From NCBI GenBank assembly GCA_964016885.1, contig OZ024741.1, positions 102,858,001 to 102,922,000 on the forward strand: DNA of 64,000 nt, read 5' to 3'. Source of the DNA: Eledone cirrhosa (Eukaryota). Below are positions 11,183 to 60,789 of this stretch, piece by piece. Position numbers and translations under genes: made by a program. Below the pieces are notes generated by a model. It searched no databases. It had not been told where the DNA came from and worked only from the letters and a program-made list of their open reading frames with translations. Numbering within the stretch: position 1 is the stretch's first letter; each line of letters starts with the position of its first letter.

Positions 11183-11239
<57 letters not shown>

Positions 11240-11405
11240 GGGAAGAAGACGCACGAGGTGACGGAGGTCATGAAATCGCTCCCGTAAGTTTTGAATTTTT
11301 AACATATTTAAATCATTTGTGAAATAACAACTCTTAGTACAAATGCTACGTAAAGCACCCGGCTTGAGCCCCAAAAAAATTCGGACCCAAAATATATTGT
11401 TATAA

Positions 11406-12054
11406 GGCTCAAATATTCAAATATTCAACTTTGTATTGTACACTGTATATCAAAAAAAAAAAAAATGGCTATAAATGGAAGAAGAAGAACCCCCCCCCCC
11501 TCCTCTCCTCTGGCTACACTATATAGGACAGCTAAACTCACCAACACCAGAAACTAGATACACCACCCACCCCATCATCCCTGTACACTAAACACAACAG
11601 CATTTTCACCTTCACCGCCACCGCTCACTACGGCCATCATTACCACCACTATCCCATCACCGCCGCCACCACCCCTTGACTCCTTCACTGCTGCTGCCAC
11701 CGCTACAGCACCATCACTACAGTAATACGGCTCAAATATTCAAATATTCAACTTTGTATTGTACACTGTATATCCAAAAAAAAAAATAAAATGGCTATAA
11801 ATGGAAGAAGAAGAACCCCCCCCCCCTCCTCTCCTCTGGCTACACTATATAGGACAGCGAAACTCACCAACACCAGAAACTAGATACACCACCCACCCCA
11901 TCATCTGTGTACACTAAACACAACAGCATTTTCACCTTCACCGCCACCGCTCACTACGGCCATCATTACCACCACTATCCCATCACCGCCGCCACCACCC
12001 CCTGACTCCTTCACTGCTGCTGCCACCGCTACAGCACCATCACTACAGTAATAC
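11406..12054 (+). repeat. Tandem duplication (~325 bp x2) in the A1 leader
   Basis: 11406-11728 is nearly identical to 11729-12054. Confidence 0.95.
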
Positions 12055-12625
12055 GGTCGCATCACCGCCACCACTGCCTCGGTATCGACATCACCACCAC
12101 CACTGTCTCAGTATCGCCAACGCCGCCAGTCTCTGCTGGCTACCACTTCCACATTATAGAATTCCTACTACTAACAAAGAGGAAGGCATCAAAATATATA
12201 GATAGACTCAAAAGAAAAAAGAAAAAACAAACAACAAAAGCAGCACAGCAACAACAGTAAAAAACGAGAAAAACAGAGAAAAACAAAAACAAAAAAAGAA
12301 ACCCCAAAAACGTAAAGAAAATAAGAATGAAGAGAGAAGCAGGCGGACGGACAGAGAAGAGGGGGGAAAAAGTAAAACTTAAAAAACAAAAACTAAGTCA
12401 GACATTCGAATACTACATTACAATGAAACTTATGCTTATTCATTTTTGGGGCCCTTTCTGCCCGTGTGTTTGTTTGTTTATGTGTGTCCGTATACAGCGT
12501 GGTGATAATGCCACACAAGGGCCAAGTGGGATGGCGGATCCACAGATGGCTATGTAAACATACATTCGCCAATCCTCGATAAGAGTGTTTAAATATCGAA
12601 CATAAACAGTTCGAATAACGGTGAA

Positions 12626-15600
12626 ATGGAGACTAGAACGTCATGTGACAGACTCTCACCCAACAGGTGCCCCCTGGCTCAGCAGCAGGAACCTGACTGT
12701 CAACCAAATACTGCTGATGTTGGAGGAAGAAGAAGAAGGAAAGGGGCCAGAACCAACTGGACGAAAGAATTGAATAGAACTGTTATGCAATGCTACCTGA
12801 AAAGTAACCCCAAGGAGAGGGGCTACAGGAGACGGATGCATAACATCTGGAACGAGATTGGTTTATTTAAATTAGATGAACAAAAATTGGCCGGGCAGGC
12901 TCGGGTAATAAGAACTAATGGGTGGATAAGCGAGCTGGAACTGGAGGAACTGAGCAGAGAGAATGGCTTGGAGATGGCGGGTGTATTATGCCAGACAAGC
13001 GAGCCGGCGGGAAATGAAGGTGAGGAGGTCCTGAGAACGGAGGAACCACCCGAAGCAGACAATGATCTGAATACTGAGATAAATAATACCTGGAACAGAG
13101 ATACGGCCACTGAGGAGATGAATGCTGACGGGCTAGGACAAGATTCGGTTGACATCCTAAATTTAGTGGTAGATGAGTTGAACAATGATAGTGGGAGACC
13201 TATGAACCTAAGATTTGTAGACAGGAAAAAGTTAAAAGAAACAACAGCTAAGGTAAACAAAGTCATCCCATACCTTGAGGCGAGGAGTCTTCACCAGTGC
13301 AACAATATCCTCAAAGCAACAGCAAATACGGTGAGGAAACTACTTGGTATAAAAGCGAGAGGAAACAACAGACAAGAAAGAGCAGAGCCGTGGTGGAAGA
13401 AGCGACTGAGTGGGCAAATCGGGGAAATGAGAAATGACATAGGAAAGCTTGAGTCACTACTGAATGGGACACTAAAAAACATAGGCACTAAAAATAGACT
13501 GGAAATAAAATACAAAACTAGGAGTAAAAAGCTAAATATTATCATAGAGGAATTGAAGCAACGCATTGTAGCAAAGAGTGCCAAAATCAGGCGATACGAG
13601 AACAGAGTCAGTCAGTATAAACAGAACCGCATGTTCGACAACAACCAGAAGATGCTGTTTGGACAGCTTGAGGGGAAAGAAAGAGGCAACGACTTGATCC
13701 CTGGGGCGGAACAAGCTAAAACATTCTGGAGAGGAATATGGGAGCAGGATGTTAGACACAATGCCCAGGCAGGGTGGATTGAGACAGTACAGAGGGAGAT
13801 CGGTGAGCAGGCACAGCAACAGACTGATTTGAGTATCACAGTTGAAACTCTTAAGGGGCAAGCCAAAAAACTAACCAACTGGAAATCACCAGGCCCAGAT
13901 GGTGTGCAGGGGTATTGGATTAAACATTTAACATCCCTCCACCCGAAGCTGACGGCCATGTTCAATGACTGCTTGGTGTCGGGTGAGGTGCCAGAGTGGT
14001 TGACAAAAGGTACCACAGTTCTGATAATGAAAGACCGAATCAAGGGTAATGATGTTACCAACTATAGACCTATCACATGTCTGACGGTAATGTGGAAACT
14101 GTTGACGAGCATTGTGTCTGAGGAAATCTACCATCACCTCCACACAAACAACTTGTTGCCGGACGAACAGAAAGGATGCCGAAAGAAGTCACGTGGTACA
14201 AAGGACCAGTTGCTTATTGATAAGATGGTAATGGGGAATTGCAGGAGGAGACACACTGATCTTGCCTTGGGATGGATAGACTACATAAAGGCATTTGACA
14301 TGGTGCCTCATTCCTGGATCACCAAAAGCCTGGAGATCTTCAGGGTGGCAGATAACATCAGACAGTTGCTGGGCAGGAGTATGGGGTCCTGGGAGACAGA
14401 GTTGACATCAACTGGAGTATCCTTGGGAAGCGTGAATATCAAGAGAGGTATCTTCCAGGGAGATAGCCTGTCCCCTCTGTTGTTTGTCCTTGCCCTGATG
14501 CCCTTGACCATTATGCTGCGAAAAGTGAGAGCAGGATACAAGTTGGGAAGGGGAGAGCTTACCATCAATCACCTCCTCTTCATGGACGATCTTAAGCTCT
14601 TCGGGAAAAGTGAGAAGGAGTTGGATGTGCTTGTTGACACTGTCCGTATTTTCAGCAGTGATATATGTATGCAGTTTGGTATTGGTAAATGTGGAGTCAT
14701 TGTGATGGGGAGGGGTAGGTTGAGCAGAAGTAACGGGATCCAGATACCAACAGGTGAGATGATAAAGGAAATTGACTCTGACGAAGGATACAAGTATTTG
14801 GGCGTTCTGGAGGCTGATGGCATAAAGAACAAAAAAATGAAGGAATTGTTAAGAACTGAATACATTCGGAGAGTAAGGAGCGTATTGAAGTCACATCTGA
14901 ACAGCAGAAATGCCATAAGCGCAGTAAATTCCCGAGCTGTGTCTATTATTAGGTACAGTGCGGGAATTCTGAGATGGAATGTTGCTGAACAAAAAGAAAT
15001 GGATAGGAAGACTAGGAAGCTATTGACTATCTACAACATGTTCCACAAGAGGAGTGATGTCGATAGACTCTACCTAAGGAGATCTGAGGGTGGAAGAGGT
15101 CTTATCAGCATAGAGGACTGTGTTCAGATGGAGAAAAACAACCTATACAAATACGTGACCTATAGTAAGGAGCCAATGCTCAGAGCTGTACTGAAGGAGG
15201 GGACAGTAGGCCAGGGGATACCCAAGGAGGAAATAACATCAAGGAGGAAGAGCAGCCTTAAGGGAAAATCCCTTCATAGTACCTTCTTTGAGAAAACTGA
15301 ATTTAGAGATCCACAGACATGGAACTGGTTGAGAAGAGGAGACCTCAAAAAGGCTACAGAAGGAATGCTAATGGCTGCGCAGGAGCAGGCCCTCAAAACG
15401 AAGTGGTTGAAGCACCATATCTACAAGGAGGAGGCTAGCCCACTGTGCAGGATCTGTGGAGAGAGAGAGGAGACTGTGGCTCACACTGTGTCCGAGTGTA
15501 AACACCTAGCCCAGACCCACTATAAGGGCTGGAGACACGATGTGATGGGCAGGGTGATCCACTGGCACCTGTGCAAAGTAAACAATCTACCACATTCTGA

Positions 15601-16018
15601 GAAATGGTATGAGCATAGGCCAGAGGCGGTGATGGAGAACAGTCAGGTGAAGGTGCTGTGGGATTTTAGGATACAGACGAACAAAAAACTGGAACACAAT
15701 AGACCTGACCTGGTGGTTGTGGACAAAGAAAAAAGATCGTGCCTGATTGTGGATGTGGCCTGCCCGTTCGACACGAGAGTGCAAGAGAAGGAGAGGGAGA
15801 AAATTAACCGATACCAGGACCTAAAGTGGGAGGTGAAAAGGATTTGGAACTGCCATGAAGTCAAAGTGATCCCGATTGTCATAGGCGCACTGGGGACTAT
15901 CTCCAAAGGTTTCCAGGGATGGTTAAAGAAAATCGGCCCCTTCACGCTTTTTGGAACGCTTCAAAAGGCATGCTTGCTTGGAACGGCAAGAACCCTCCGA
16001 TACGTCCTGAATATCTGA
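12626..16018 (+). CDS. RT-RLE polyprotein of R4/Dong-like element (1130 aa, intact)
   Basis: N-terminal Myb-like RTNWTKELN..VMQCY..S.P.ERGYRRRM; RT motifs KSPGPDG, YRPITCL, DYIKAFD, GIFQGDSLSPLLF, FMDD; CCHC CRICGEREETVAHTVSEC; RHD; RPDLVV..D and K...Y of a PD-(D/E)xK restriction-like endonuclease. Confidence 0.95.
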   Translation: METRTSCDRLSPNRCPLAQQQEPDCQPNTADVGGRRRRKGARTNWTKELNRTVMQCYLKSNPKERGYRRRMHNIWNEIGLFKLDEQKLAGQARVIRTNGWISELELEELSRENGLEMAGVLCQTSEPAGNEGEEVLRTEEPPEADNDLNTEINNTWNRDTATEEMNADGLGQDSVDILNLVVDELNNDSGRPMNLRFVDRKKLKETTAKVNKVIPYLEARSLHQCNNILKATANTVRKLLGIKARGNNRQERAEPWWKKRLSGQIGEMRNDIGKLESLLNGTLKNIGTKNRLEIKYKTRSKKLNIIIEELKQRIVAKSAKIRRYENRVSQYKQNRMFDNNQKMLFGQLEGKERGNDLIPGAEQAKTFWRGIWEQDVRHNAQAGWIETVQREIGEQAQQQTDLSITVETLKGQAKKLTNWKSPGPDGVQGYWIKHLTSLHPKLTAMFNDCLVSGEVPEWLTKGTTVLIMKDRIKGNDVTNYRPITCLTVMWKLLTSIVSEEIYHHLHTNNLLPDEQKGCRKKSRGTKDQLLIDKMVMGNCRRRHTDLALGWIDYIKAFDMVPHSWITKSLEIFRVADNIRQLLGRSMGSWETELTSTGVSLGSVNIKRGIFQGDSLSPLLFVLALMPLTIMLRKVRAGYKLGRGELTINHLLFMDDLKLFGKSEKELDVLVDTVRIFSSDICMQFGIGKCGVIVMGRGRLSRSNGIQIPTGEMIKEIDSDEGYKYLGVLEADGIKNKKMKELLRTEYIRRVRSVLKSHLNSRNAISAVNSRAVSIIRYSAGILRWNVAEQKEMDRKTRKLLTIYNMFHKRSDVDRLYLRRSEGGRGLISIEDCVQMEKNNLYKYVTYSKEPMLRAVLKEGTVGQGIPKEEITSRRKSSLKGKSLHSTFFEKTEFRDPQTWNWLRRGDLKKATEGMLMAAQEQALKTKWLKHHIYKEEASPLCRICGEREETVAHTVSECKHLAQTHYKGWRHDVMGRVIHWHLCKVNNLPHSEKWYEHRPEAVMENSQVKVLWDFRIQTNKKLEHNRPDLVVVDKEKRSCLIVDVACPFDTRVQEKEREKINRYQDLKWEVKRIWNCHEVKVIPIVIGALGTISKGFQGWLKKIGPFTLFGTLQKACLLGTARTLRYVLNI

Positions 16019-16104
16019 GGCTGCAGGTAGTGGCTTGATATTCAATCCAACGGACTTTCCAGTTAACCAACATCAATGACTGAGATTCAAGGAATAACAA
16101 TAAC

Positions 16105-16136
<32 letters not shown>

Positions 16137-16138
<2 letters not shown>

Positions 16139-16933
16139 CTGAATTTAGAGATCCACAGACATGGAACTGGTTGAGAAGAGGGACCTCAAAAAGGCTACAG
16201 AAGGAATGCTAATGGCTGCGCAGGAGCAGGCCCTCAAAACGAAGTGGTTGAGGCACCATATTTACAAGGAGGAGGCTAGCCCACTGTGCAGGATCTGTGG
16301 AGAGAGAGAGGAGACTGTGGCTCACATTGTGTCCGAGTGTAAACACCTAGCCCAGACCCACTATAAGGGCTGTAGACACGATGTGATGGGCAGGGTGATC
16401 CACTGGCACCTGTGCAAAGTAAACAATTTACCACATTCTGAGAAATGGTATGAGCATAGGCCAGAGGCGGTGATGGAGAACAATCAGGTGAAGGTGCTGT
16501 GGGATTTTAGGATACAGACGGACAAAAAACTGGAACACAATAGACCTGACCTGGTGGTTGTGGACAAAGAAAAAAGATCGTGTCTGATTGTGGATGTGGC
16601 CTGCCCTTTCGGCACGAGAGTGCAAGAGAAGGAGAGGGAGAAAATTAACCGATACCAGGACCTAAAGTGGGAGGTGAAAAGGATTTGGAACTGCCATGAA
16701 GTCAAAGTGATCCCGATTGTCATAGGCGCACTGGGGACTATCACCAAAAGTTTCCAGGGATGGTTAAAGAAAATCGGCCCCTTCACGCTTTTTGGAACGC
16801 TTCAAAAGGCATGCTTGCTTGGAACAGCAAGAACCCTCCGATACGTCCTGAATATCTGAGGCTGCAGGTAGTGGCTTGATATTCATTCCAACGGACTTTC
16901 CAGTTAACCAACATCAATGACTGAGATTCAAGG
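16137..16933 (+). mobile_element. Dong family A, 5'-truncated copy A2
   Basis: Near-identical to 15295-16092; AAT on both sides. Confidence 0.95.
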
Positions 16934-16974: not shown

Positions 16975-19900
16975 CACACTAAATATAACAGCCAGATAAC
17001 GGTAATTTCACCACCACCACCACCAATCCCAGCATCATAATAATTATTACTATTATTATTGTCTCAAGTTTTAACAAAATGTTTAATTCCAATTTTACGG
17101 GAATATGTCAACACAATATATATTAAACATACGCGACACAAACTCATAGATACTACATATCACAAAACTCAGTAACGACAACGCCACCGCCGCCACCACC
17201 TCATCCATCATTGCTACCACTATCACATCGCCGCCGCCACCACTCCTTCATTGCAACCACCACTGTTCCCCTGTTAACTTAAGAAAGGGGAAGGTGACGG
17301 TATCACTAGACAAGGGAGAGGCTAGCAAAAGATATAAATAGATTGACTTAGTGACCTGGCCACCGGCCAAACGTCAACAAACTATGGCACTGCTGGCTCC
17401 CCCCTTCCTCACCAGCAATATAAAAAGCCCCAGCACCACCACCGATATAGCCAACAACAATAACAGACAACTTCAGCAAAAAGTATATTATATTATTGTA
17501 ATGCACTGGGTGATTGCTGGCCTTGTGCCTGGAGTGGAGACGGTTATTAATAATTTCATTCGTAAGCGACGTAATGCTCACATTAAGGAACCACTCATGA
17601 TAATAACAATTTAAAAAAAAAACAACAAAAAGAAAACCCCGTGACCAAGAAATACCGGGATGGCGGCCGGCGGGGAATAGCCGTGTCTCTAGGGGAGAAC
17701 GACCCCTCTAGTCTTGGTTGACACTCGTTCTAGAAGTGGTAACACGAAATGATTACCCCTTGGCGGATAAGGATAAAACGCGACAAAATAAAGTAAATGT
17801 CTAATGATAAAATCTCATACCGGATCGGCTGTCATCCGGGTAAAAAAGGGCCGCGTCCCTCAGAGAGGAACCAGACTGGGGTCGAAAAATCAGCTAATGG
17901 TTCAAACCTTCCCATCACTTCGGAGCTGGAGACCTCCCATAACCGGAATACTCCTACTGTTGGCCCTCCATGCTCACCACCAAGAAATCCAAAGAAAAAG
18001 AGAGAAAAATGGTCAAGGGAAGATAATAAAGAAGTCCTTGAGGCTTTCTACACTGCCATGTACTACCCATCAAATACATCGAATACAGAACAGACATATA
18101 TCAACTGGAAAAAGAAACATCCCGAAAACAGAGGCTATATTGACAGTAACAAACTAGCCAATATACGAAGAAATATTGTAAGAAAAAAGTTACTAACTGA
18201 TATAGAAATTGATCAGATCAAGCTATTAGCACAAAGTCAGCGACGGGGAAATGAAACATGTGTCAGTGAAAACGAGGTAAACTGTAACACTTCGAATCCC
18301 AGGGTTGGGGCGGAATCACTGGCAACAGAACAAATTAAAGAAAGGATCGAAAAAGTGGAGCGAGTGCATGCTCAAGATGAAACTCCAAATGAAAATAATG
18401 AGATCGTAAATGATAAAGAAATGAATGAGAATGAACTTGCCAACTTGAAGGATGAAATTATGATCGAATGGATGAAAATGAAAGTATCTGACATGGGGCA
18501 ACGAGACACCCTCCCTAAGATCCAGAACTCCAAACAGAACCAAAAGATAATACACAAGACTAACATAATCTCAAAAACATTATCATCACAAACAAACTAA
18601 ACATTACTGATTTAAATCATCTCTATTATGCAACGGCTAAAGTCACCACTCACTTATGTGGAGTGAAGATGAAAAAACAAAGGAATTCCCACAAGAAATC
18701 TACTTTGAAAGAGAACAGCAATCGCCAAATAAACCTTCTCCGATTTTAACAAACTATAAAGTAGGTGAACATGTTAAACAAACTAAACTTAGAAAATTGA
18801 AAAGAAAGTACAGTATAAAATCAACAAGTGACATAGACATGCTGATAGAAATAATCAAGCAAAAAGTGTCGGCCAAAGCTGCTCGTATAAGGCGCTTTGA
18901 AAAACGATCTAGATTCTATAAGGACAATAATATGTTCAAAAACAACCAAAGAAACTTCTACAGAAAAATTGGTAAGTCAACAATAACTGCTAAATCAATA
19001 CCACCCAAGAACGAAGTACAAGAATTCTGGGCAAAGATCTGGACCGAAGAAAAAGTTCATAAAATACATGCCCCATGGATAGACAGACAAATGAAAGATA
19101 CAGCTCACCTTGAGGAACAAATATGGGAAAATATAACTGTTGAACAGTTGCGCTTGGCTCTAAGAAAAACCAGCAAATGGAAATCCCCAGGAAAAGACAA
19201 AATACAAAACTTTTGGATAAATGCCTTCACAGAGTCTCATGAGCTGTTAGCCCAACTTTACAATGAAATAGTTAAGGAGCCAGAAAAGATACCATCATGG
19301 CTAGTTAACGGCATTACATTCCTGCTTCCGAAGAATGATGAGACAAACAATCCCAAAAATTACAGACCGATAACTTGCTTGACCACAATGTATAAAATGT
19401 TAACATCAGTCCTAACTGAATACACATATGACCACCTGATAACAAATGTCCTATTTCCCATTGAGCAGAAAGGGTGTAAACGAGGCTCATATGGCTGTAA
19501 GGATCAGCTTTTGGTTAACAAAATGATACTGGAAGATTCTCATAATAGACACAAAAATCTATCAATTGCTTGGATAGATTATTAAAAAGCATTCGATAGT
19601 TTGCCACACAGTTGGATTGAAAAATGTTTAGAGATTTTCAAAATATCCCCCGTTGTCAGGAGGTTTTTGTCATTCAGTATGAAGACATGGAAAACTACAC
19701 TCCTTTTGAATAGTGAAACAAAATCACTGGAAGCTGGAGAAGTTAATATTAATTGTGGAATTTTTCAGGGTGACTCTTTATCACCGCTTTTATTCTGCAT
19801 CGCACTTATACCATTAAGTAAAATGCTCAATGAAACAAAACATGGATATAAAGTCTATGACAAAACCATTAATCACTTGTTCTACATGGATGACCTGAAA

Positions 19901-21571
19901 CTATTTGCAAAAAATGATGAACAATTGCAAGGGCTATTATCCACTGTGGAGCAGTTCAGTGATGACATTAAAATGGAGTTTGGACTAGATAAATGCGCCA
20001 AAGCAACGTTTACCAGAGGAAAGCTGCTGAAGAGTTCAGACATTAATCTTGATCGGGGGAACGTGATAAGAGAACTTGATCAAGAAAAAACTTACAAATA
20101 TCTAGGTGTTTGTGAAGGAGACGGAATCAAGCACTCGACAATGAGGGAAGGGATAAGGAAGGAATGTTACCGCAGAGTAAGCGCAATCTTAAGAACGGAA
20201 TTGAATGCAAGGAATAGGATCGATGCCATACGCTTGCCATACCAGTAGTAACCTACAGTTACAATGTCATCAACTGGTCAAGCACAGAGATCCGTAGGCT
20301 CGATACAAAAATTCGAAAATTCTTAACCATGCACAGAATGCATCACCCTAAGGCAGATACAAATAGAATATATCTCCCTAGGAAAGAAGGAGGACGGGGG
20401 TTAATCCAGTAAGACATTGCGTTGAAAACTGCAACAATTGGATTATCTACATATCTAAGCGAATCACATGATTGGATGATCAAACTCGTTTTGAAACACG
20501 AAAGCATCAAAAGATCATACTCCATTACAAAAGATGCACAAAGATACAGTAATGGACTACAAATTTCAGAAGTCCCATTTACTGCTGAAATGGAAAACAG
20601 AAAAAGCAAATCTGGTAAAAGTAACTGCAAAGAAAGAACTGCTACAGAAACTGGCTAAGAAATTGCAAGAAAAGCCTCTGTATGGAAAATACCCAGAGCG
20701 AGCTAACAATCCTGATGTTGACAAAACTTTAACCCATCAGTGGTTAGCATCCTCTGGACTGAACTCGGAGACTGAAGGACTGATTATATCAGCACAAGAT
20801 CAGTGTCTGCCAACAAAAAATTACCAAGCCAACATAATTATAAATGGATGCAGCCCATTATGCCGTGTATGCAAAAAACAACCAGAGACCATTGACCATA
20901 TAATTTCAATGTGCAGTCCTATAGCTCCAACCGAATACCTAAACAGGCATGACAGAGCTGCACAATACATACATTGGATAATGTGTAAGCATTTTGACCT
21001 GCCCCATCAAAAGAATTGGTGGGAGCATCAACCACCTCCCATACTTGAAAAAGATCACATCTCAATCTTGTGGAACTTTAGCATCCAAACAGACCGAAAA
21101 ATAGATGCAAATAGACCTGATATAATATTGAAGGACTTTAAAAAGAGGGTATGCCTGCTAATTGATATGTCTGTTCCAATAGACAAGAATGTATCTATAA
21201 AAACATTTGAAAAATTGAGCAAGAATAAGGACCTGGAGATAGAAATTGGAAAAATGTGGAAACTGAGAACTAAAACAATACCAGTGGTTGTAGGCGCTCT
21301 GGGAATGATACCTAAGGGGTCTAATGATTACTTATCGCAAATCCCAGGAAACCCGCGTACAGGAGAAATACAAAAGATAGTACTAATGGGAACTGCCCAT
21401 ATACTAAGGAAGATTCTGTCAATATAAGTACATCACAAGTCTAAACACTAAAGATGCATGTGTGAATATGTATGTTCTTTCTTGAACATGGCAGACCTTG
21501 TTGTCTCTTGAGGTCACTGGTTGTGACTTGGTGATAACTCGTATGAACATAAAGCAAGATAAATGCAACTG
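16975..21571 (+). mobile_element. Dong family B copy B1 (lacks first ~325 bp; ORF 17797-21427 disrupted)
   Basis: ORF fragments give REKWSREDN, YRPITCL, GIFQGDSLSPLLF, YMDD, CRVC..QPETIDHIISMC, RHD, NRPDII; stops and frameshifts present. Confidence 0.92.
17498..17543 (+). mobile_element. 5'-truncated SINE tail inserted in the B1 leader
   Basis: Matches 1629-1672, is absent at the homologous site in B2 (~50115), and has TTATT on both sides. Confidence 0.85.
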
Positions 21572-21592
21572 TAATAATAATAATAATAATAA

Positions 21593-23179
21593 AACTAACC
21601 AACTGGAAATCACCTGGCCCAGATGGTGTGCAGGGGTATTGGATTAAAAACATAACATCCCTCCACCCGAAACTGACAACCATGTTCAATGACTGCTCGA
21701 TGTCAAGTGAGGTACCAGAGTGGTTGACAAAAGGTACCACAGTTCTGATAATGAAAGACCGAATCAAGGGTAATGATGTTACCAACTATAGACCTATCAC
21801 ATGTCTGTCCGTAATGTGGAAACTGTTGACAAGCATTATGTCTGAGGAAATCTACCATCACCTCCACACAAACAACTTGTTACCGGACGAACAGAAAGGA
21901 TGCCGAAAGAAGTCACGTGGTACAAAGCATCAGTTACTTATTGATAAGATGGTAATGAGGAATTGCAAGAGGAGACACACTGGTCTTGCCATGGGATGGA
22001 TAGACAACAAAAAGGCATTTGACATGGTGCCTCATTCTTGGATCACCAAAAGCCTGGATATCTTCAAGGTGGCAGATAACATCAGGCAGTTGTTGGGCAA
22101 AAGTATGAAGTCCTGGGAAACAGAGTTAACATCAACTGGAGAATCCTTGGGAAGCGTGAAGATCAAGAGAGGTATCTTCCAGGGAGATAGTCTGTCCCCT
22201 CTGTTGTTTGTCCTTGCCCTGATGCCCCTGACCAGTGTACTGCGAAAAGTGAGAGCAGGATACAGGTTGGGAAAGGGAGGGCTTACCATCAATCACCTCC
22301 TCTTCATGGACGATCTTAAGCTCTTCGGGAAGAGTGAGAAGTAATTTGGATGTGCTTGTTGACACTGTCCGTATTTTCAGCAATGGTATATGTATGCAAT
22401 TTGGTATTAGTAAGTGTGGAGTCATTGTGATGAGGAGGGGTAAGTTGAGCAGAAGTAACGGAATCCAGATACCAACAGGTGAGATGATAAAAGAAATTGA
22501 CTCTGAAGAAGGATACAAGTATTTGGGCGTTCTGGAGGCTGATGACATCAAGAACAAAAAAATGAAGGAATTGATAAGAACTGAATACCTTCGGAGAGTA
22601 AGGAGCGTATTAAAGTCACATCTGAACAGTAGGAATGCCATAAGTGCAGTAAATTCCCGAACTGTACATTATTAGGTACAGTGCGGGAATTCTGAGATGG
22701 AATGTTGCTGAACAAAAAGAAATGGATAGGAAGACTAGGAAGCTATTGACTATCTACAATATGTTCCACAAGAGGAGTGATGTCGATAGACTCTACTTAA
22801 GGAGATCTGAGGGTGGAAGAGGTCTTATCAGCATAGAGGACTGTGTTCAGATGGAGAAAAACAACCTACACAAATACGTGACTGATAGTAAGGAGCGAAT
22901 GCTCAGAGCTGTACTGAAGGAGGGGACAATAGGCCAGGGGATGTCCAAGGAGGAAATAACATCAAGGAGAAAGAGCAGCCTTCAGGAAAAATCCCTTCAT
23001 AGTACCTTCTTTGAGAAAACTGAATTTAGAGATCCACAGGCATGGAACTGGTTGAAAAGAGGAGACCTTAAAAAGGCTACAGAAGGAATGTTAATGGCTG
23101 CGCAGGAGCAGGCCCTCAAAACGAAGTGGTGGAAACACCATATTTACAAGGAGGAGGCTAGCCCACTGTGCAGGATCTG

Positions 23180-23270
<91 letters not shown>

Positions 23271-23531
23271 CTGTGGCTTACATAGTATCCGAGTGTAAAC
23301 ACCTAGCCCAGACTCACTATAAGGGCTGGAGACATGATGTGATGGGCAGGGTGATCCACTGGCACCTATGCAAAGTAAACAATTTACCACATTCTGAGAA
23401 GTGGTATGAGCATAAGCCAGAGGCGGAGATAGAAAACGATCAGGTGAATGTGCTGTGGGATTTTAGGATACAGACGGACAAGAAACTGGAACACAATAGA
23501 CCTGACCTGGTGGTTTTGGACAAAGAAACAA
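21593..23531 (+). mobile_element. Dong family A copy A3, 5'-truncated and 3'-deleted
   Basis: Similar to 13869-~15733; frameshifts; (GA)42 expansion at 23182-23265; fused directly to Tx1 a1. Confidence 0.92.
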
Positions 23532-25177: not shown

Positions 25178-25466
25178 AATAATAATAATAATAATAATAA
25201 TAATGATTTCTTTATTAACCACAAGGGTTTACATAAAGTAGACATTAAGGACAGTGCAGGACAATGCAGGACGGTACAAATGGGCATTTCTGCGTGTAAA
25301 AAAACAAAAACAGAGGATGTAACAAAAATAACAATGAAAATAACAATGAAAAATTGCCCAATAGGGGGGAGACTTCGGAGGGACATTTGTGGAGAAAGCC
25401 CAGTAAAAAGCCACAATGACCCTGACCACCAAGGCAAGTGCCCTCTCCCAGTTTTCCACCTTTAGT

Positions 25467-49136: not shown

Positions 49137-49228
<92 letters not shown>

Positions 49229-52200
49229 GGAAGGGAAGCAGACGCACGTGGTGGATAGAAGGTCATGAAATCGCTCCCGTAAGTTTTTGATTTTTAACAT
49301 ATTTAAATAACAATTCTTAGTACAAATGATACATAAAGCACCAGACTCAAGTCTCAAAGTAATTCGGATCTATAATATATTGTTATATCGCTCAAATATT
49401 CAATTTTGTATTATACATTTTATATTCAAAAAAGAAAATGGTTATAAATGGAAGAAAACACCCTCTGTCAACACTATATAGAACAGCCAAATAACAGCAA
49501 TTTCACCAACACCAGAAACTAGATACACCACCTACCCCATCACCCCTCTGTGTACACTAAATACAACAGCCAGATAACGGCAATTTCACCACCTCCACCA
49601 CCACCAATCCCAGCATAATAATAATAATTACTATTATTATTGTCTCAAGTTTTAACAAAATTTTTAATTCCAATATTAAAAGAATATGTCAAAACATATA
49701 TTAAACATACGCGACAAACGCATAGATACACAGATGAAACAAAACTACAGTCTATTCAACAAAACTCAGTAACGAGAACGCCATCACTATAGTCACCGCC
49801 GCCACCACTCCATCCATCATTGCTACCACTATCCTATCACCGCTGCCACCACTCCTTCATTGCTACCACCACTATTCCCCCATTACCTTCTGTTAACTTA
49901 AGAAAGGGGAAGGTGGCGGTATCACTAGACAAGGGAGAGGCTAGCAAATGATATAACGAGATTGACTTAGTGACCCGGCCACCGGCCAAACGTCGACGAC
50001 TATCGCACTGCTGGCTCCCCCCTTCCCCACCAACAATAGAAAAAGCCCCAGCACCACCACCGACATAGCCAACAACAATAACAGGCAACTTGAGCAAAAA
50101 GTATATTATATTATTAATAATTTCATTCTTAAGCCACGCAATGCTCACATTAAGGAACCACTCATGATAATAACAATTTAAAAAACAACAAAAAAGAAAA
50201 CCCCGTGACCAAGAAATACCGGGAAGGCGGCCGGCGGGGAATAGCCGTGTCTCTAGGGGCGGACGACCCCTCTAGTCTTGGTTGACACTCGTCCTAGAAG
50301 TGGTAAAACGAAATGATTACCCCTTGGCGGATAAGGATAAAAAGCGACAAAATAAAGTAAATGTCTAATGATAAAATCTCATACCGGATCGGCCGTCACC
50401 CGGGTCAAAAAGGGCCGCGTCCCTCAGAGAGGAACCAGAATGGGGTCGAAAAATCAGCTAATGGTTCAAACCTTCCCATCAATTCGGAGCTGGAGACATC
50501 CCATAACCGGAATACTCCTACTGTTGGCCCTCCATGCTCACCACCAAGAAATCCAAAGAAAAAGAGAGAAAAATGGTCAAGGGAAGATAATAAAGAAGTC
50601 CTTGAGGCTTTCTACACTGCCATGTACTACCCATCAAATACATCGAATACAGAACAGACATATATCAACTGGAAAAAGAAACATCCCGAAAACAGAGGCT
50701 ATATTGACAGTAACAAACTAGCCAATATACGAAGAAATAGTGTAAGAAAAAAGTTACTAACTGATATAAAAATTGATCAGATCAAGCTATTAGCACAAAG
50801 TCAGCGAAGGGAAAATGAAACATGTGTCAGTGAAAACGAGGTAAATTGTAACACTTCGAATCCCAGGGTTGGGGTGGATTCACTGACAACAGAACAAATT
50901 AAAGAAAGGATCGAAAAAGTGGAGGGAGTGCATGCTCAAGATGAAACTCCAAATGAAAACAATGAGATCGTAAATGATAAAGAAATGAATGAGAATGAAC
51001 TTACCAACTTGAAGGGTGAAATTATGATCGAATGGATGAAAATGAAAGAATCTGACATGGGGGAACGAGACACCCTCCCTAAGATCCAGAACTCCAAACA
51101 GAACTCCAAACAGAACCAAAAGATAATACACAAGACTAACATAATTCTCAAAAACATTATCATCGCAAACAAACTAAACATTACTGATTTAAATCATCTC
51201 TATTATGCATCGGCTAAAGTCACCACTCACTTATGTGGAGTGAAAATTAAAAGACAAAGGAATTCCCACAAGAAATCTACTTGGCAAGAGAACATCAATC
51301 GCCAAATAAACCTTCTCCGATCTGACATAGAAATTTTAACAAACTATAAAGTAGGTGAACATGTTAAACAAACTAAACTTAGAAAATTGAAAAGAAAGTA
51401 CAGTATAAAATCAACAAGTGACATAGACATGCTGATAGAAATAATCAAGCAAAAAGTGTCGGCCAAAGCTGCTCGTATAAGGCGCTTTGAAAAACGATCT
51501 AGATTCTATAAGGACAATAATATGTTCAAAAACAACCAAAGAAACTTCTACAGAAAAATTGGTAAGTCAACAATAACTGCTAAATCAATACCACCCAAGA
51601 ACGAAGTGCAAGAATTCTGGGAAAAGATCTGGGCCGAAGAAAAAGTTCATAATATACATGCCCCATGGATAGACAGACAAATGAAAGATACAGCTCACCT
51701 TGAGGAACAAATATGGGAAAATGTAACAGTTGAAACAGTTAACATTTGGCTCTAAGAAAAGCCAGCAAATGGAAATCCCCAGGAAAAGACAAAATACAAA
51801 ATTTTTTGATAAATACCTTCACAGAGTCTCATGAGCTGTTAGCCCAACTTTACAATGAAATAATTAAGGAGCCAGAAAAGATACCATCATGGCTAGTTAA
51901 CGGCATTACATTCCTGCTTCCGAAGAATGATGAGACAAACAATCCCAAAAATTACAGACCGATAACTTGCTTGACCACAATGTATAAAATTTTAACATCA
52001 GTCCTAACTGAATATACATATGACCACCTGATAACAAATGACCTATTTCCCATTGAGCAGAAAGGGTGTAAACGAGGCTCATATGGCTATAAGGATCAGC
52101 TTTTGGTTAACAAAATGATACTGGAAGATTGTTATAATAGACACAAAAATCTATCAATTGCTTGGATAGATTATTAAAAAGCATTCGATAGTTTGCCACA

Positions 52201-54157
52201 CAGTTGGATTGAAAAATGTTTAGAGATTTTCAAAATATCCCCCGTTGTCAGGAGGATTTTGTCATTCAGTATGAAGACATGGAAAACGACACTCCTTTTG
52301 AATAGTGAAACAAAATCACTGGAAGCTGGAGAAGTTAATATTAATTGTGGAATTTTTCAGGGTGACTCTTTATCACCGCTTTTATTCTGCATCGCACTTA
52401 TACCATTAAGTAAAATGCTCAATGAAACAAAACATGGATGTAAAGTCTATGACAAAACCATTAATCACTTGTTCTACATGGATGACCTGAAACTATTTGC
52501 AGAAAATGATGAACAATTGCAAGGGCTATTATCCACTGTGGAGCAGTTCAGTGATGACATTAAAATGGAGTTTGGACTAGATAAATGCGCCAAAGCAACG
52601 TTTACCAGAGGAAAGCTGCTGAAGAGTTCAGACATTAATCTTGATCGGGGGAATGTGATCAAGAGGAAAGTTACAAATATCTAGGTGTTTGTGAAGGAGA
52701 CGGAATCAAGCACTCGACAATGAGGGAAAGGATAAGGAAGGAATGTTACCGCAGAGTAAGCGCAATCATAAGAACGGAATTGAATGCAAGGAATAGGATC
52801 GATGCCATAAACACGCTTGCCATACCAGTAGTAACCTACAGTTACAATGTCATCAACTGGTCAAGCACAGAGATCCGTAGGCTCGATACAAAAATTTGAA
52901 AATTCTTAACCATGCACAGAATGCATCACCCTAAGGCAGATACAAATAGAATATATCTCCCTAGGAAAGAAGGAGGACGGGGGTTAATCCAGTAAGACAT
53001 TGCGTTGAAAACTGCAACAATTGGATTATCTACATATCTAAGCGAATCACATGATTGGATGATCAAACTCGTTTTGAAACACGAAAGCATCAAAAGATCA
53101 TACTCCATTACAAAAGATGCACAAAGATACAGTAATGGACTACAAATTTCAGAAGTCCCATTTACTGCTGAAATGGAAACACAGAAAAAGCAAAGCAGGT
53201 AAAAGTAACTGCAAAGAAAGAACTGCTACAGAAACTGGATAAGAAATTGCAAGAAAAGCCTCTGTATGGAAAATACCCAGAACGAGCTAACAATCCTGAT
53301 GTTGACAAAACTTTAACCCATCAGTGGTTGGCATCCTCTGGACTGAAATCGGAGACTGAAGGACTGATTATATCTGCACAAGATCAGTGTCTGCCAACAA
53401 AAAATTACCAAGCCAACATAATAAAAAATGGATGCAGCCCATTATGCCGTGTATGGAAAAAATAACCAGAGACCATTGACCATACAATTTCAATGTCCAG
53501 TCCTATAGCTCCAACCGAATACCTAAACAGGCATGACAGAGCTGCACAATACATACATTGGATAATGTGTAAGCATTTTGACCTGCTCCATCAAAAGAAT
53601 TGGTGGGAGCATCAACCACCTCCCATACTTGAAAAAGATCACATCTCAATCTTGTGGAACTTTAGCATCCAAACAGACCGAAAAATAGATGCAAATAGAC
53701 CTGATATAATACTGAAGGACTTTAAAAAGAGGGTATGCCTGCTAATTGATATCTCTGTTCCAATAGACAAGAATGTATCTATAAAAACATTTGATAAATT
53801 GAGCAAGTATAAGGACCTGGAGATAGAAATTGGAAAAATGTGGAAATTGAGAACTAGAACAATACCAGTGGTTGTAGGCGCTCTGGGAATGATACCTAAG
53901 GGGTCTAATGATTACTTATCACAAATCCCAGGAAAACCCGCGTATAGGAGAAATACAAAAGATAGTACTAATGGGAACTGCCCATATACTAAGGAAGATT
54001 CTGTCAATATAAGTACATCACAAGTCTAAACACCTAAAGATGCATGTGTGAGTATGTATATTCTTTCTTGAACATGGCGGACCTTGTTGTCTCTTGAGGT
54101 CACTGGTTGTGACTTGGAGATAACTCGTATGAACATAAAGCAAGATAAATGCAGCTG
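49229..54157 (+). mobile_element. Dong family B full-length copy B2 (ORF from 50361 disrupted)
   Basis: Highly similar to B1, with a complete 5' leader; AAT on both sides. Confidence 0.92.
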
Positions 54158-54185
54158 TAATAATAATAATAATAATAATAATAAT

Positions 54186-57100
54186 GATTTCTTTATTAAC
54201 CACAAGGGTTTACATAAAGTATACATTAAGGACAGTACAGGACAATACAGGAAGGTACTAATGGGCATTTCTGCGTGTAAAAAACAAAAACAGAGGATGT
54301 AACAAAAAAATAACAAAGAAAAATTCCCCAATAGGGGGGAGACTTCGGAGGGACATTTGTGGAGAAAGCCCAGTAAAAGGCCACAGTGACCCTGACCACC
54401 AAGGCAAGTGCCCTCTCCCAGTTTTCCACCTTTAATTTACATATGCGTACTCAGAGTAGGCCCATTCACTCGGGCCATTCTTGCTTCTCTCACCCATCTT
54501 TCAACAAAATGCTGGGAAGAGAGCACTTCCCTCTCTATTCTGATTTTCCTTTTCAAATGAAATTTGAAAAAAGTCAATCAGGGCATCACCGAAGAATAAG
54601 TGCTCGTCTTCAGCCCTTTCAAACGTGTCCACCATACTATCTCTTTCGCCATGGCTACCAGACAGATAAAAACTGCCTGCCCTTCCCGGCTAAAGGAAGA
54701 GGGCGGGGCAATCCTAACGATGGACTCAGATGATAGCCGGATCCGTCCTATACGCGACAGCAGGTGTTCGACATAAATCCACAAGTCAGCAATTTTCGGA
54801 TACTGGACGAGTGCGTGCAGGACGGTTTCGTCGCCCTGAGCGCATCTCGGACATGCCCGGCTGACGGCACCTCCATGCCTGTAGAGTGTATCCCGAACTG
54901 GCAAAGCTCGTCGGTAGCACTGCCAGGCCAGAGATTTCTGGAAGTTGTCCATAGGCCCCGGCCCAAAAGTTCTTCCGAAGAGATTGGCTAGTTGATTTTT
55001 GTTTACGCCTAGAGTTTAGCCAAGTACGTCGTCGCTCTTCCCCTCCCCTAATCCTCTATAGAACGCCGAGGTGGAGTTTCCACCGATCACATTGCCCGAT
55101 TGGTCGAGGGCTGTGAGCGCCTGAAGACATTCCAGTCTCCAGGCGCTCCCTCTCGGTCTTCGCTTGACCCAGGAGTGCAGCTCCGTCAAGGAAACGAGCT
55201 GGGGAAATACGTGTCTAGCAAACGGCGACCACACCTGATCACCGTCGAGGAAGAGGTGGAGATGTCGTAGCCTGAGCGCGTGTCTTGGCATCATCTGCCA
55301 CGGCATGCCCAGCCCTCCCAGACCCCTAGCAATTTAACCGGTCCATCCGTCCAGTGTCCGACGACGCTGTTTGACGGCATGGACCTGCCTCTCCAGGTTC
55401 CGAGCTGCAGGCCCACTGACTTTTCCTGGTTGAGCATTGCTCCTGTCAACGCTTGGTATTCTCTTAGTGTAGTGCCGATCGCCTCGATGTGTTTGGCGTT
55501 CGACACCACTACGGTGACATCGTCCGCATATGCTGACACGGATCATCCGCATCCTAGTTCACGCGGGACACCCCTCAACGTCTCCAGTTTTTGCACTAAT
55601 GGCTCGAGAGTCAATACGTACAAGAGGGACGAGAGGGGACATCCTTGGAGGACCGAGCGCATGATGTTGAACGGTTCCGAAAGGTGACCGTTCACTCTCA
55701 CCATAGAGCAGATGTCGCTGTGCATGGCAGCGATCCAACCTCTGAAGACGGGCCCAAAGCCAGCCGCACTCAGGACTGCCGCTAGGTAACGATGGTCGAC
55801 CCTATCGAAAGCTTTCGACTGATCTAAATTGATCAAGGACCCACCTGTGCCAGGTTCCCTAGCTACCCTCTCTACGATGTATCGCATGAGGTGGAGGTTG
55901 TCGTGGATGGATCTGTCGGGAATGGCGCATATCTGCGCCTCTCCCACCAGACCACCAACGACAAGCGCCAATCTCTTTGCTAGCACCTTGGCCAAAATCT
56001 TGAACTCTGTGTTTAGCAGAGTTATGGGCCTGAAATTATCTATGTTATCCCCCTTGTTCGGATCCTTTCTCAGCAGTGCCACCGCTCCTCGGCTCACAGA
56101 GCTGGGAATTCTCCCGTTCTGTTGCCAGTTGCAGTAGACGTCCGCCAAGAGGCCTCCGAACAAGTCTGGCATCTGAACGTAAAGTTCATAGGGTAGACCA
56201 TCCAAACCAGGCGATTTACCCCTTGTGCAGCCAGTCATTGCCTCCCGTACTTCAGCGGCTGTTATCGGCTTTTCGCAACGCTCCGCCTCAGTGGCCGAGA
56301 GCCGCGGCAGTCCGTCGAAGTAGACACTAAAGTCCATCCCTAGACCCGGCCCACCCCTGCCCGCGAACAGCTGAGCGAAGTGACGCTGAAAAGCTTCACA
56401 CATTTTCCCGGGATCGAGTAGCATGCGCCCGTCGTGGTCCACCAAAGACCGGATCGTTGCTTTGTTGCCACGACGCACCTCCGCCACTCGGGCCCATTGA
56501 ACGGCTTTCGTCCCCTCGTGTCTGAGAGCACGCACCCTAGCTCTGACAACGCAGTCTTCGTGCTTTGCATTGAAGAATTGGTCAAGGGCCAATTTCTCCG
56601 CAAGCACGTCGGTCGCGATGCCTTTGTTAAGCGCCTCGTCTAATTTTCTAACTAGTTCTCCTTCTTATTTGTCTCTATTACTAAAGCTTTACTAAACCTA
56701 ATGGATTCTATTCTAATCGCTCTTTTCAGAGCAAACCACCACTTGTTGTTGACGATGGCCCCCGTCAACGCGCACTTAACTAGTTCGCTAATCCGGTCTC
56801 TGTAGGCCTTGCGCGCTGGTAAGGACGCGTTTAGCTTCCAGTAGCCGGGTCCTCGTCTATGAAGCCTATCTAATTGTCCGTGTAGCTGACTATCTTGAAT
56901 TGTGGACAGCCGATGCTAGACCTATCTATTTCCCTACAAAATACTCTATCTAGATATGATCTGGATGACCCTATGCGATTTGTCCAAGTCCACATTGGCA
57001 CATTCGGGAAATCCAATCGGTACCTGTCAGACAGTTCAAAACGCCTGAGCAGGTTGGTGAGGCTCTTGCACCCTCCACTCCTATCCGCTAATCCCACACA

Positions 57101-59730
57101 GTCCCAGCGTGCATCTAAGATCCCGTTCCAGTCGCCCACTAACACTAAAGAGCGGGACGTTCCAAGAAAGGTCTCCAGACGCCGGAAGAAATCAGGCCGC
57201 CCTGCTCCTGTCGGGGCATAGACGGCCACTAGCCTGAAAGATTGTCCGTCTCCGCTGGTCACGTCCAGCACCACCAACTTACCCTCTGGGTCCAGGAAGA
57301 TGGCCCGTATGGCGAGATCCAAACCTCTCCGAAAAAGCACAGCAACTTCTCCCCCCGATCCCGGACGGCTGGGAGATGTGTACACATCGTAGCCGCCGAA
57401 GATCGGTGCGAAGGCCCGTGCTTCGGAGATTCTGGTCTCGCTGATGGCCACTACATCTATGTTTAGTGACCTGAGGTCGTTGAGCAGGTGGCCCTGCTTC
57501 CATGACGAGCCCATGCCACGCGCATTTATGCTGCCTATTCTGAGTGAGGTCATGTTGAAATGGAGTGGAAAAGATGGGAAAGACCACTTACCTTACTTCT
57601 CGTAGAGGAAGGATGGTTTCTCCATTCTTTTCACCGCTTGTGGCCTCCTCCGGAAGGATGTCCTTATAAATCCTCCTGGAGAGTGTTTGTCGGAAGTCTC
57701 CGATGTCTTTGGGGGAATTTTTGTTTTAGTGTCGTGTACGTTTTCTGTGTTATGCGAGTGATTTGTATGTGTGGAGGTGGTGTGAACTTTTGGGTTGTTG
57801 TGTAGTCTTTTTCTGTGATGCTGGTGTTGTGTTGCATGTAGTGTAATAATTGGTTGTTGTTCAAATTTAATGCTGTGTAGTGTGTATCGTTTTGGTTGTT
57901 TTGTTTTGTTTGCGTTTGTTGTGGGTTTGTTTCTGTTACGCTTTTTGGTGACTTTTGTGGTGTTGGTGATGGTGGTGTTGGGGTTAATGATGGGGATAGT
58001 GTTGGTGTTTGTGGTTATGGGGTTGGTGATGCTGGTGTGGATGGTGGCATATCTGTCCTAACTTTTTTGTTTGATAATTTATTTGTTTCCCTCTGTATTT
58101 TGTTTTTGGAGGGGGAAGGAAGAGAATTTTTTCTTTTTTGGTTTCTTTTTTTTTTTCGGATACCGTTTCCCACTCCTCGTCATCACAATCTGTCTCCAGT
58201 TGTGATAGGTCGGGGAATGGAAAATCCTCCACAGGCGTTAGTTTCGGTTGTGGCGTGGTGGATGGTGTAGGCGCTGGTGCTAGTTCTGGCGCGTTGGGTG
58301 GTGGTGTTGTTGGTTTTGCTACTGTTGCTGGGGTTGTTGCTGTTACAGTTGCTTCTGTTGTTGCTGCTACAGTTGTTGCTGCCATCTCTGCTGCTGGTGG
58401 TGTTGATGGTTGAGTCACTGGAGTGAGTAAGAGAGGTGGCCTCAACCTTTTAGCCTGAGGGCAGAAAGCCCTTAGGTGGGTTCCTTCACCACAAACGACA
58501 CACCTAGGCCTTCTGCCCTCGACGATTACGATTAGGTGGCTGCCGTCAGTGAGGTCTATCACCTCTGGGATCTACTCAATGCTTTTTTGGTCCGCTTGGA
58601 TCAGGAGCTCCATCCCAGATCTGGACCAGTTCTCCTGCTTTTCTTTCGCTATTTCGATTATCTTGGTGTTGTCCTCGATGCCGGCGAGGACGTCAGCCAT
58701 TAGCCAGGGAATTTCGATGGCCGGTGGAACGTGGGTCACCCTGATCTTCACGAGTCTCTGGCCACAATAGCTTGGGACGAGTGTGAAGTCGTCACTTCTT
58801 AATGGGGTCATGGAGTGTTCTCTGGCCTCTCAAAGAACACATCCACGGTTCCATATTTCTGCCCACGTCTGATGTGGGGTTTTTTTGCCCACACATGTCT
58901 CAAAGCTTTTTAGATTTGGGACTCGGATGCCCGTTCCACTCGGCGCGATTTCATGTTAATTGTCTGATAAGACACGGTGCATAGGCAACGATGCTCCATT
59001 TTATTAGGGGGGGGGGCTGACCAGCTTTCTTTACCATCTGTAACCATCTTTCTTTACCATTCTCTTGGCTTCTTCTAATTCCTCCTGAGTTACCTGGATC
59101 GCATCGCACGTTTTTGCTACTCTGGCAAAACTCAGGGTAGTTTTCTTAATTTCATTGTTGCTGTTGTTGTTATCGTTATTTTTGTTATTGTTAATTTTAG
59201 TTTCAGTTGTGGTGGTGGTGGCGTCAGTGGTGTTCGGTGTGGAAGATTTCATTTTGGTTGAATTCATTTCGATATCATGAGTTAATTTATTTTTTTCTTT
59301 TGTTTCTGTTGTCGCTGTGGTGGTGGTGGGGGTGGCGGCTTTAACACCTGCAGTCATTGGTAATGGCGGGAAATGAATGTCTGCCTGAGACAAATTTAAA
59401 ATATTGCTAATGCTTATATTTTTAGTGTTGGCAAACGTAGTAATATTTACAATGGTGGTGTCGGTGTGAGGTGTTAGTTTGTGAGGAAGGTGTGAATCTG
59501 AGTCGGCCATGATTTTTCAAAGAAAAATATTTTTTTTGTTTGATAATTATAAAAAGTTTAAATTTTGGGCTCAAGGCCCCAATCTTTTTGAGTGTCCTTT
59601 TCAGGAATCAATGTATGTGCACTTATATACAGTTAACAATAAAAAATTTCCATAAATGGCAATTTTAAACAACTGAAAATAACAAACCTTTGCGGAGCTC
59701 ACGATGATACGATTTACTACGTAGGTCGCC
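54186..59730 (-). mobile_element. Tx1-like element, diverged type-b copy b3 with internal deletions
   Basis: b-type 5' end GGCGACCTACGTAG and ORF1 (ATG 59510); deletions near 55318, 56872 and 58828; several frameshifts. Confidence 0.9.
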
Positions 59731-60789
59731 AATAATAATAATAATAATAACAATTCTCATCATAATCAATAGCATCTTAATTATTGCCAACATCATCTTC
59801 ATTCTCAGTTCTAGTACATCACCAGTTTACGACAAATATAAAAACAATAAAACAGAGGTAGTCACAATAACATACACATCACAAAACAACACAACAGCTC
59901 TAGTAGTAGCCACCCTAACAACCATAATACCATACAACTGCAGTAGTAGTCGAGTAACATGGACACAGAAAAACATGAAACTTTACTCCAGATTCCATAA
60001 AAAGCCCCAGTGGAATATCCAATAGTCAAAGCCAAAAAATATTGTTATTTTCCTCATACAATAAAAAAGGATCACTTTCTATTCTTTATATATATATATA
60101 TACAGAAAAGATTCTCTTTAACATAAATAGAACTCAACAATATAACCATAATAAGAAACATCGTTATAGAAAACGCAACAATCTGAAAGAAATAGATATT
60201 TTATTAAACGTTTTCTCTTTGTGTTATTTCGTTATTTTTACAAAATGCTTCTTATATATCATCTGATTCCTTTGTATTATTTTCGTTCATTTTTTTAATA
60301 TATATTTACTATATTTTCGTCTCATTTAATTTTCCATCTGTGTGTGTTTGTGCGTGAAGACTGGGGAAAACAGCGAACATTGTATTCAAGATATGTTGAC
60401 AAAACTGAATAATGGTGAGCATACTTACAGATTAGATTTTCTACAAACTTATGTAGTATATGCGAAATAGTAGGAGCGTTTGGAATATACAATTGATTGT
60501 GTATATGTTCATGGATATACCCCTCCCACGTATATATATATATATATATATAAGTTTGATTAAAATAAGAGGAGGCTGGACTGGTGATGTTCCTTAAAAT
60601 TTTATTGCTGTAAAAACTGTATATATATATATATATATATATATGTTAATGGCCTGGTTACGTAATATCCCGGTGACATCATCAGGTTCGGATTGCATAA
60701 TTGATTAATCAATGAAGGAATTACCGCATACACAAACAGAGAAAATATAGAAAAAATATTTGATTCGATGGCCTGCGACCTCGCCATTA

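Follow-up and report, generated by a model that had tools for sequence, protein, structure and literature searches.

Dong/R4-like and Tx1-like LINEs Share (AAT)n Microsatellites in Opposite Orientations in the Octopod Eledone cirrhosa

Introduction

By what process can eleven retrotransposons of two clades come to be strung end to end, one clade facing each way, with runs of a single trinucleotide between them? The question is raised by a window of 64,000 nucleotides (the whole stretch of DNA analyzed; positions 102858001-102922000 of contig OZ024741.1) in the 3.0 Gb assembly GCA_964016885.1 of Eledone cirrhosa. Positions 11184-59750 of the window hold five Dong/R4-like long interspersed nuclear elements (LINEs) with a restriction-like endonuclease (RLE), all on the plus strand, and six Tx1-like LINEs with an apurinic/apyrimidinic endonuclease (APE), all on the minus strand, as found by self-BLAST, repeat scans and a library map in which the window was matched against four natural copies taken from it. 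The elements, numbered E1 to E11 in order of position, are parted by 11 AAT runs of 6-30 perfect units each, every one with AAT on the plus strand. An initial annotation of this DNA had described element termini at (AAT)n, a fixed orientation for each clade and no nesting of one LINE within another, and had proposed that the target is regenerated by each insertion. The descriptive statements held for the 11 elements: 20 of the 22 ends adjoin a run, among them the truncated 5' ends of E2, E3 and E4, a deletion has fused the remaining two, and no nested LINE was found. The answer developed here, which we consider likely, is that two LINE clades sit in (AAT)n in opposite orientations and that the array grew by eleven independent target-primed insertions, each of which left usable repeat on both sides.

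Target and Strand Preference across the Genome

The sharing of (AAT)n by Dong/R4-like and Tx1-like LINEs in opposite orientations is a genome-wide pattern. Two Dong-like lineages (A1, A2) and two Tx1-like lineages (a1, a2) were followed through chosen-match sets, each made up of the 30 best loci among 244-1926 candidates and including one window copy; A1 3' ends and a1 5' ends were read from loci fetched by other ends. Within these best 30 matches, the 3' ends of a2 run straight into sense (ATT)n in 30/30 copies, poly(A) being found at 0/30 of these junctions, and (ATT)n stands directly before the 5' end in 30/30, with the same register, ATT|GGCGAC, in 29/30. Dong ends were placed by script on sense (AAT)n/(TAA)n in 29/30 cases for A1 5' ends and 29/30 for A2 3' ends, and on inspection the two misses turned out to have a run that is interrupted or that lies beyond duplicated 5' pieces. 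Beyond the run, another family member was encountered at 72/120 chosen ends (69/116 without window copies), in the predicted orientation in 72/72 cases, three of which are window copies. Among 20 a2 copies selected at the 3' end, the 5' end abuts ATT in 13/13 full-length and 5/7 truncated copies. Across 194 loci, 388 run-borne element ends produced two strand flags, both of them script artefacts in which the touching run has the expected strand; these ends include truncated 5' ends of 81 Dong and 8 Tx1-like copies, and 35 head-to-head junctions in the same loci carry runs. The genomic copies tabulated in this way have AAT flanks and a fixed strand, as the initial annotation anticipated.

An evenly spaced sample of 79 stretches of 10 kb (790 kb; L172 overlaps one chosen locus by chance) was also analyzed. 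Copies of at least 88% identity fill 4.9% of it (bootstrap 1.7-8.9%), 34/36 of their ends abut a run, the strand rule is kept at 32/32 run-adjacent ends and a neighbour is present at 18/36. Occupation of AAT runs was 12/14 for 12 or more units, 5/11 for 8-11, 7/15 for 5-7 and 0/13 for 4 units; the control repeats were occupied at 0/1108 (AT), 0/172 (AC), 0/80 (AG), 0/38 (ATC), 1/53 (AAC) and 1/8 (AAG). Beside metagenome relatives (23-42% identical), AAT-type runs were found at 0/80 loci, a count that carries no information, since repeats break short-read contigs.

A SINE-like repeat (SINE, short interspersed nuclear element; window ~10700-10870 and 1544-1642; L144) has 199 matches in the 790 kb. 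Its tail starts with ATT, loosely like the Tx1-like 3' end, and such tails provide the run at several LINE junctions (L033, L056, L075, L240). This abundant SINE is without AAT specificity and was ruled out as a member of the guild, with (ATT)3 at only 4/63 of its 5' ends and 9/112 of its 3' ends.

Protein Architecture and Family Placement

The A1 element E1 encodes a single open reading frame (ORF) of 1141 aa from stop to stop, with a reverse transcriptase (RT; PF00078) at 487-738, and the frame is open in 9/13 further full-length A1 copies. Both A1 and A2 carry a C-terminal CCHC finger (CRIC..H..SEC) and an RPD..(x)..D motif of the PD-(D/E)xK restriction-like type, and no APE domain (PF03372) was detected in the A1 protein by Pfam scan. 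The predicted A1 structure (mean predicted local distance difference test, pLDDT, 86.5; 86-sequence alignment) has R2 proteins as its best Foldseek matches, with template modeling (TM) scores of 0.52-0.59, and residues 58-128 form a confident four-helix domain in the full predicted model. A Myb/SANT-like domain at the N-terminus, without zinc fingers, is described as a feature of the R4/Dong clade (PMC7998251). The single ORF, central RT, CCHC finger with RLE and insertion in (TAA)n found in A1 are the marks of R4/Dong elements. The A1 and A2 proteins are 36% identical, the open A2 frame being taken from L157, and their 5' untranslated regions (UTRs) are 77% alike (window 11240-11601 against 49229-49570); such alike UTRs beside such divergent proteins suggest, from sequence comparison, either that 5' UTRs were exchanged or that an RNA element is conserved.

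On the Tx1-like side, ORF1 of E6 bears a CX2CX4HX4C zinc knuckle, and a1 ORF2 contains APE (PF03372), RT (PF00078) and C-terminal zf-RVT (PF13966) domains. The nearest solved structure to a1 ORF2 is human L1 ORF2p (E 1e-52 over residues 60-911), R2 following at E 1e-21. The marks of Tx1 elements are thereby present in a1: two ORFs, APE, RT and zinc domain, an RT of the L1 group and a target preference. Among named proteins, the one most closely related to the APE-type ORF2 comes from Argonauta hians (73% over 38% of the query region). In a tree containing no curated Tx1 or L1 references, this protein, a1, a2 and a further family, b, form one clade (100/100) that has no resolved link to a match auto-named 'TX1 149 kDa protein'. 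Clade names are kept here at Dong/R4-like and Tx1-like; the 120 homologues listed for the Dong/R4-like protein bore no clade names. The ORF2 sequences of a1 and a2 are ~96% identical, while their 5' UTR and ORF1 modules differ (window E6 against E7; L131, L144, L170), and a number of copies have a chimeric look. In sequencing run X1, which has another organism label, read depth drops sharply over the ORF1 region and stays high over ORF2.

Family b, a sister family, consists of Tx1-like copies with ~72% DNA identity in the sample, and its ORF2 is open and 67.6% identical to that of a1 (locus L187:2562-6285, further copies L260-L314, 1246 candidates for its 5' end). This family is associated with a different repeat. 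Its 5' ends follow (TCTA)3+ in 21/30 copies, the others standing mostly after degenerate TCTA or TA, and (TCTA)3+ comes after its 3' end in 14/25, an ATT run in 0/25. TCTA likewise borders truncated 5' ends at several loci, and family b builds tandem arrays of its own. No Dong-like partner was found at TCTA runs in 55 loci. The APE domains of b and a1 share 62% identity and differ at two positions where they align with the L1 hairpin, the role of which is described in PMC1919474. In L264 and L269 the same unnamed repeat, possibly another TCTA-associated element, lies after the TCTA run 3' of family b, and upstream of the family b ORF2 there is a 291-aa open frame (L187:282-1155) that could be ORF1 or belong to a different element.

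Strand Choice

Under standard target-primed reverse transcription, the first nick would fall on the ATT strand for Dong and on the AAT strand for the Tx1-like APE. The Tx1-like AATAAA sits just before the element end, yet no poly(A) run was seen in 30 copies, and for this reason a Tx1-like RNA is proposed that would end in read-through AUU units able to anneal to the nicked strand.

The strand may be a property of the RNA tail rather than of the endonuclease. In its full form, this alternative makes the tail responsible for orientation, and perhaps for the target: both enzymes would cut TpA-rich repeats loosely, only nicks that pair with the tail (UAA or AUU) would prime, and the strand would be an inherited accident. 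The lack of poly(A) at 30/30 Tx1-like 3' junctions is in its favor, as is the fact that in family b tail and target switched at the same time and that its APE has only two differences from a1 in the hairpin stretch; tail annealing also matters in SART1 (PMC7265360). However, SART1 and TRAS1 trade targets when their endonuclease domain is swapped (PMC7265360), the 5' register is constant in 29/30 copies, and the unequal 5' and 3' runs of Dong described below point to positioning measured by the protein. We regard control by the tail as rather unlikely.

Organization and Growth of the Array

The array is preceded by a degenerate CAT/CAA-rich tract (10870-11183) that follows the SINE-like repeat, and begins with an (AAT)18 run (11184-11239, plus strand) 5' of E1. 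The first four elements are Dong-like and on the plus strand. E1 (11240-16092) is a full-length A1 copy with one open ORF (12593-16018). A 326-bp tandem duplication lies in the A1 5' UTR (window 11402-12056), its copy number varying among A1 copies (L148, L150, L152). E2 (16135-16933) is a 5'-truncated A1 copy, from element position 4054 to the end, with AAT runs on both sides; E3 (16976-21571), of lineage A2, is without its first ~325 nt and has a broken ORF; E4 (21591-23532) is an A1 copy, 5'-truncated, with an internal GA tract of ~45 units and a deleted 3' end. In this tract (window 23182-23270), a short GA stretch of the A1 zinc-finger coding region has grown to its present length. Five Tx1-like copies on the minus strand follow. 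Only the 5' 1.65 kb of E5 (a1, 23529-25177) remain, joined directly to E4 at ~23530 with no AAT run; this fusion is a deletion that took the 3' ends of both elements. E6 (a1, 25205-31231) is full-length with ORF1 (28922-31066) and ORF2 (25467-29054) both open, and the full-length copies E7 (a2, 31262-37152, frames broken), E8 (a2, 37188-43079) and E9 (a1, 43113-49136, ORF2 broken) complete the group. An (AAT)30 run (49137-49228, plus strand) lies between the 5' ends of E9 and E10, which stand head to head; as there is no 3' tail at this junction, the repeat is not merely a tail. E10 (49229-54157, plus strand) is a full-length A2 copy with a broken ORF, and E11 (54186-59730, minus strand) is an older Tx1-like copy with an a2-type 5' part, a 3' part nearer to a1 and an internal deletion at ~55318. 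The array ends with an (AAT)6 run at the E11 5' end (59731-59750, plus strand), beyond which lies a degenerate, single-copy CAT/CAA-rich tract (59751-59960). The initial annotation had taken the two flanks to be similar low-complexity DNA and putative halves of one split locus. Their CAT/CAA-rich composition was found on both sides, and their likeness was weakly borne out: the 3-mer correlation of left and right is 0.51, and 176/4999 random windows reach as high a value.

Neighbouring copies in the array are not sisters, which implies separate insertions over time. When 27 Tx1-like copies were placed in a tree, none from the window paired with another as sisters; the six copies closest to E6 (0.24-0.73%) all lie outside the window, with E9 1.0% away, and E7 and E8 share no branch and sit in a star. 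Growth mainly by local tandem duplication, or by unequal crossover between copies or AAT runs, would explain why copies of the same family adjoin (E5/E6, E7/E8, E1/E2) and are 97-99% alike, and the E4/E5 deletion demonstrates that rearrangement does happen. Against such an origin, E5, E6, E7 and E8 have their nearest relatives at other loci, no window pair forms a clade, and the copies vary in age (nearest-neighbour distances of window pieces, 0.14-3.6%) and in truncation point; the closeness of E6 and E9 is confined to the 5' 1.6 kb (0.79%), and E6 is nearer to an outside copy (0.61%). Tandem duplication is thus largely refuted and very improbable. Upstream Dong copies were the younger in 32 pairs as against 11 of 52, a comparison that is biased by anchor choice, and directional growth is not claimed.

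It could also be supposed that assembly created the 48 kb array by stringing dispersed copies together across AAT runs. No junction-spanning read or contig was seen, and many frames are broken, as might be expected of such an artefact. Reads over 52000-60080 (sequencing runs X2, X3, X1 and X5) had their repeat junctions masked; X2 and X3 are one sample, maybe the assembly source, and X1 contained only 0.05 of the flank words. Each copy, on the other hand, has private differences, both flanks are single-copy in the assembly according to flank searches, and the same types of junction occur at 69/116 other sampled ends, so that we give this explanation very little credence. A geometric model with a neighbour probability of 0.45-0.6 predicts ~4-120 arrays of 11 or more elements, and for this reason the locus, though large, is probably not unique.

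Probable Target Renewal and Run Asymmetry

The regeneration of the target proposed by the initial annotation is probable. The 11 junction runs of the window sum to 128 perfect units, or 132 if one internal run is counted, whereas runs without an adjoining element (n=52) have a median of 5 and a maximum of 22 units; the splitting of one run cannot therefore explain the array. In addition, the target is duplicated in two a2 copies. In L248, AGT(ATT)6 stands at both junctions, which makes the duplication 21 nt or longer. In L249 both junctions bear an AGT/ATT block of 37-38 nt, and five extra ATT units lie beside the 3' end. These marked duplications and the sum of junction units support renewal for the Tx1-like family. 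On the Dong side, 13/13 A1 copies bring an AAC-marked tail start with them, as an exact 12-mer in 11. The tail and the target duplication, together with later slippage, would bring the run back to length.

The two clades differ in how repeat is distributed around them. In 14/14 full-length A1 copies the run at the 5' end exceeds that at the 3' end (medians 20.5 vs 10), and for Dong host-side runs the medians are 16 at the 5' and 7 at the 3' side (p 6e-5); Tx1-like 5' and 3' runs are alike (13.5 vs 15). Junction runs were shorter where a Dong copy whose 3' end touches the run is the younger partner (10 vs 19, p 0.003; 9 vs 15, p 0.002), partner ages being nearest-neighbour distances with biased anchors. 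R2 is reported to bind at -34 to -22, a recognition upstream of its site (PMC10499050), and by analogy the Dong asymmetry fits upstream recognition. Dong may then need a long repeat upstream of the nick, as R2 does, leaving ~20 units upstream and ~10 downstream.

Several observations weigh against repeated insertion with renewal of the target, or against parts of it. The chosen-match sets favor young copies, and the truncated 5' ends of a2 in L246 and L251 (2/7) are without ATT. Informative duplications occur in only two copies; in the Tx1-like copies L242, L243, L132 and L133 the 5' run has just 3-8 units, which limits their duplications to 24 nt or less, and in Dong copies L172, L180 and L188 interruptions 15-28 nt from the 5' junction are not repeated at the 3' side, indicating that the Dong duplication is short or absent. 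Flank searches detected no second or empty copy of the locus in the assembly. Regarding family placement, no Myb match was found in the A1 N-terminus by Pfam, and a single-sequence model of it (pLDDT 57) gave generic helical matches only.

That the AAT runs are element tails with later expansion, left by non-specific insertion and survival in neutral repeat-rich DNA, would suit the AAC-marked tail start in 13/13 A1 copies and the slippage evident in the GA45 of E4, yet is refuted by the 5' junctions, full-length and truncated ends alike abutting runs and 35 head-to-head junctions bearing them, and by the unoccupied state of the far commoner AT, AC and ATC runs, and is scarcely conceivable.

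As hardly any long AAT run is free, roughly one new insertion in two would land beside an older one. Insertion into a renewed target may extend into a self-feeding niche. RLE and APE elements would split the AAT duplex by strand and multiply their target as they insert, arrays would enlarge by preferential attachment (Dong mostly upstream of older copies), and the elements would thereby have filled ~5% of the 3 Gb octopod genome, a parallel niche existing on (TCTA)n. This wider proposal is tentative, and we lean slightly away from it.

Comparison with Known Systems

The system is a variant of known target-sharing LINE pairs. SART and TRAS enter the (TTAGG)n of Bombyx in opposite orientations (PMC7265360) and, as here, represent two LINE families in one tandem repeat. 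Both, however, are APE elements of the R1 clade in a telomeric host repeat, whereas RLE and APE elements meet here on dispersed microsatellites. R1 and R2 use two distinct sites in one gene in the same orientation; the elements described here use the same motif on opposite strands and leave repeat on both sides after insertion. The resemblance to R1 (APE) and R2 (RLE) lies in the use of unrelated endonucleases on one target, in their case multicopy 28S ribosomal DNA (PMC2718515; domain types in PMC1919474 and PMC4640811). Arrays built by sequential insertion beside an earlier copy are reported for tandem SINEU-3 insertions (PMC4494074) and for Drosophila HeT-A/TART/TAHRE (PMC3828246); those arrays are single-clade or at chromosome ends, in contrast to the mixed, opposite-strand and interstitial array seen here.

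Considered singly, each clade has close counterparts. A TAA target of Dong is reported for insects, molluscs and cnidarians (PMC3812793, PMC7998251), and Dong, DongAg and DongBg of the R4 clade share with the present elements a single ORF, RT, C-terminal RLE and that target. Unlike the described Dong, two lineages with 36% identity here share target and strand, the upstream run is long and the downstream run short, and an APE family uses the same target. Microsatellite-specific Tx1 families include Kibi (TC), Koshi (TTC) and crocodilian Tx1 (TTCC/TTTC) (PMC4494074, PMC3812793). By architecture and target rather than by tree, these resemble the present Tx1-like elements in having two ORFs, APE-RT and microsatellite insertion, and differ in that the targets here are (ATT)n and, in family b, (TCTA)n. 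The literature search turned up neither a Tx1 family that targets ATT or TCTA nor cephalopod arrays that mix Dong and Tx1, although Repbase, Dfam, Kojima and Fujiwara 2004 and supplements may list such families.

Dong-R4 and L1-Tx1 families are reported to be abundant and recently active in Octopus, with local hotspots of transposable elements (PMC13282606), and the present results tie this abundance and these hotspots to a concrete targeting rule. They extend the targets of Tx1-like elements by (ATT)n and (TCTA)n, and would explain how tens of thousands of target-specific copies can accumulate without exhausting their sites. They also warn that in such genomes a long AAT run is in most cases a LINE junction. 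The pair of a1/a2 and b, both with copies having an open ORF2, makes the choice of target by endonuclease or by RNA tail testable; if the proposed niche is real, family b offers a natural pair for asking what reprograms the APE or the tail.

Other Features of the Window

Outside the array, two old Tx1-like ORF2 fragments (71-79%) lie in opposite orientations at window 60810-61428. Two pairs of inverted repeats, of 180 bp and 137 bp and 93% alike, were found at window 2842-4054 and 7054-7454, and look like the ends of miniature inverted-repeat transposable elements or of DNA transposons.

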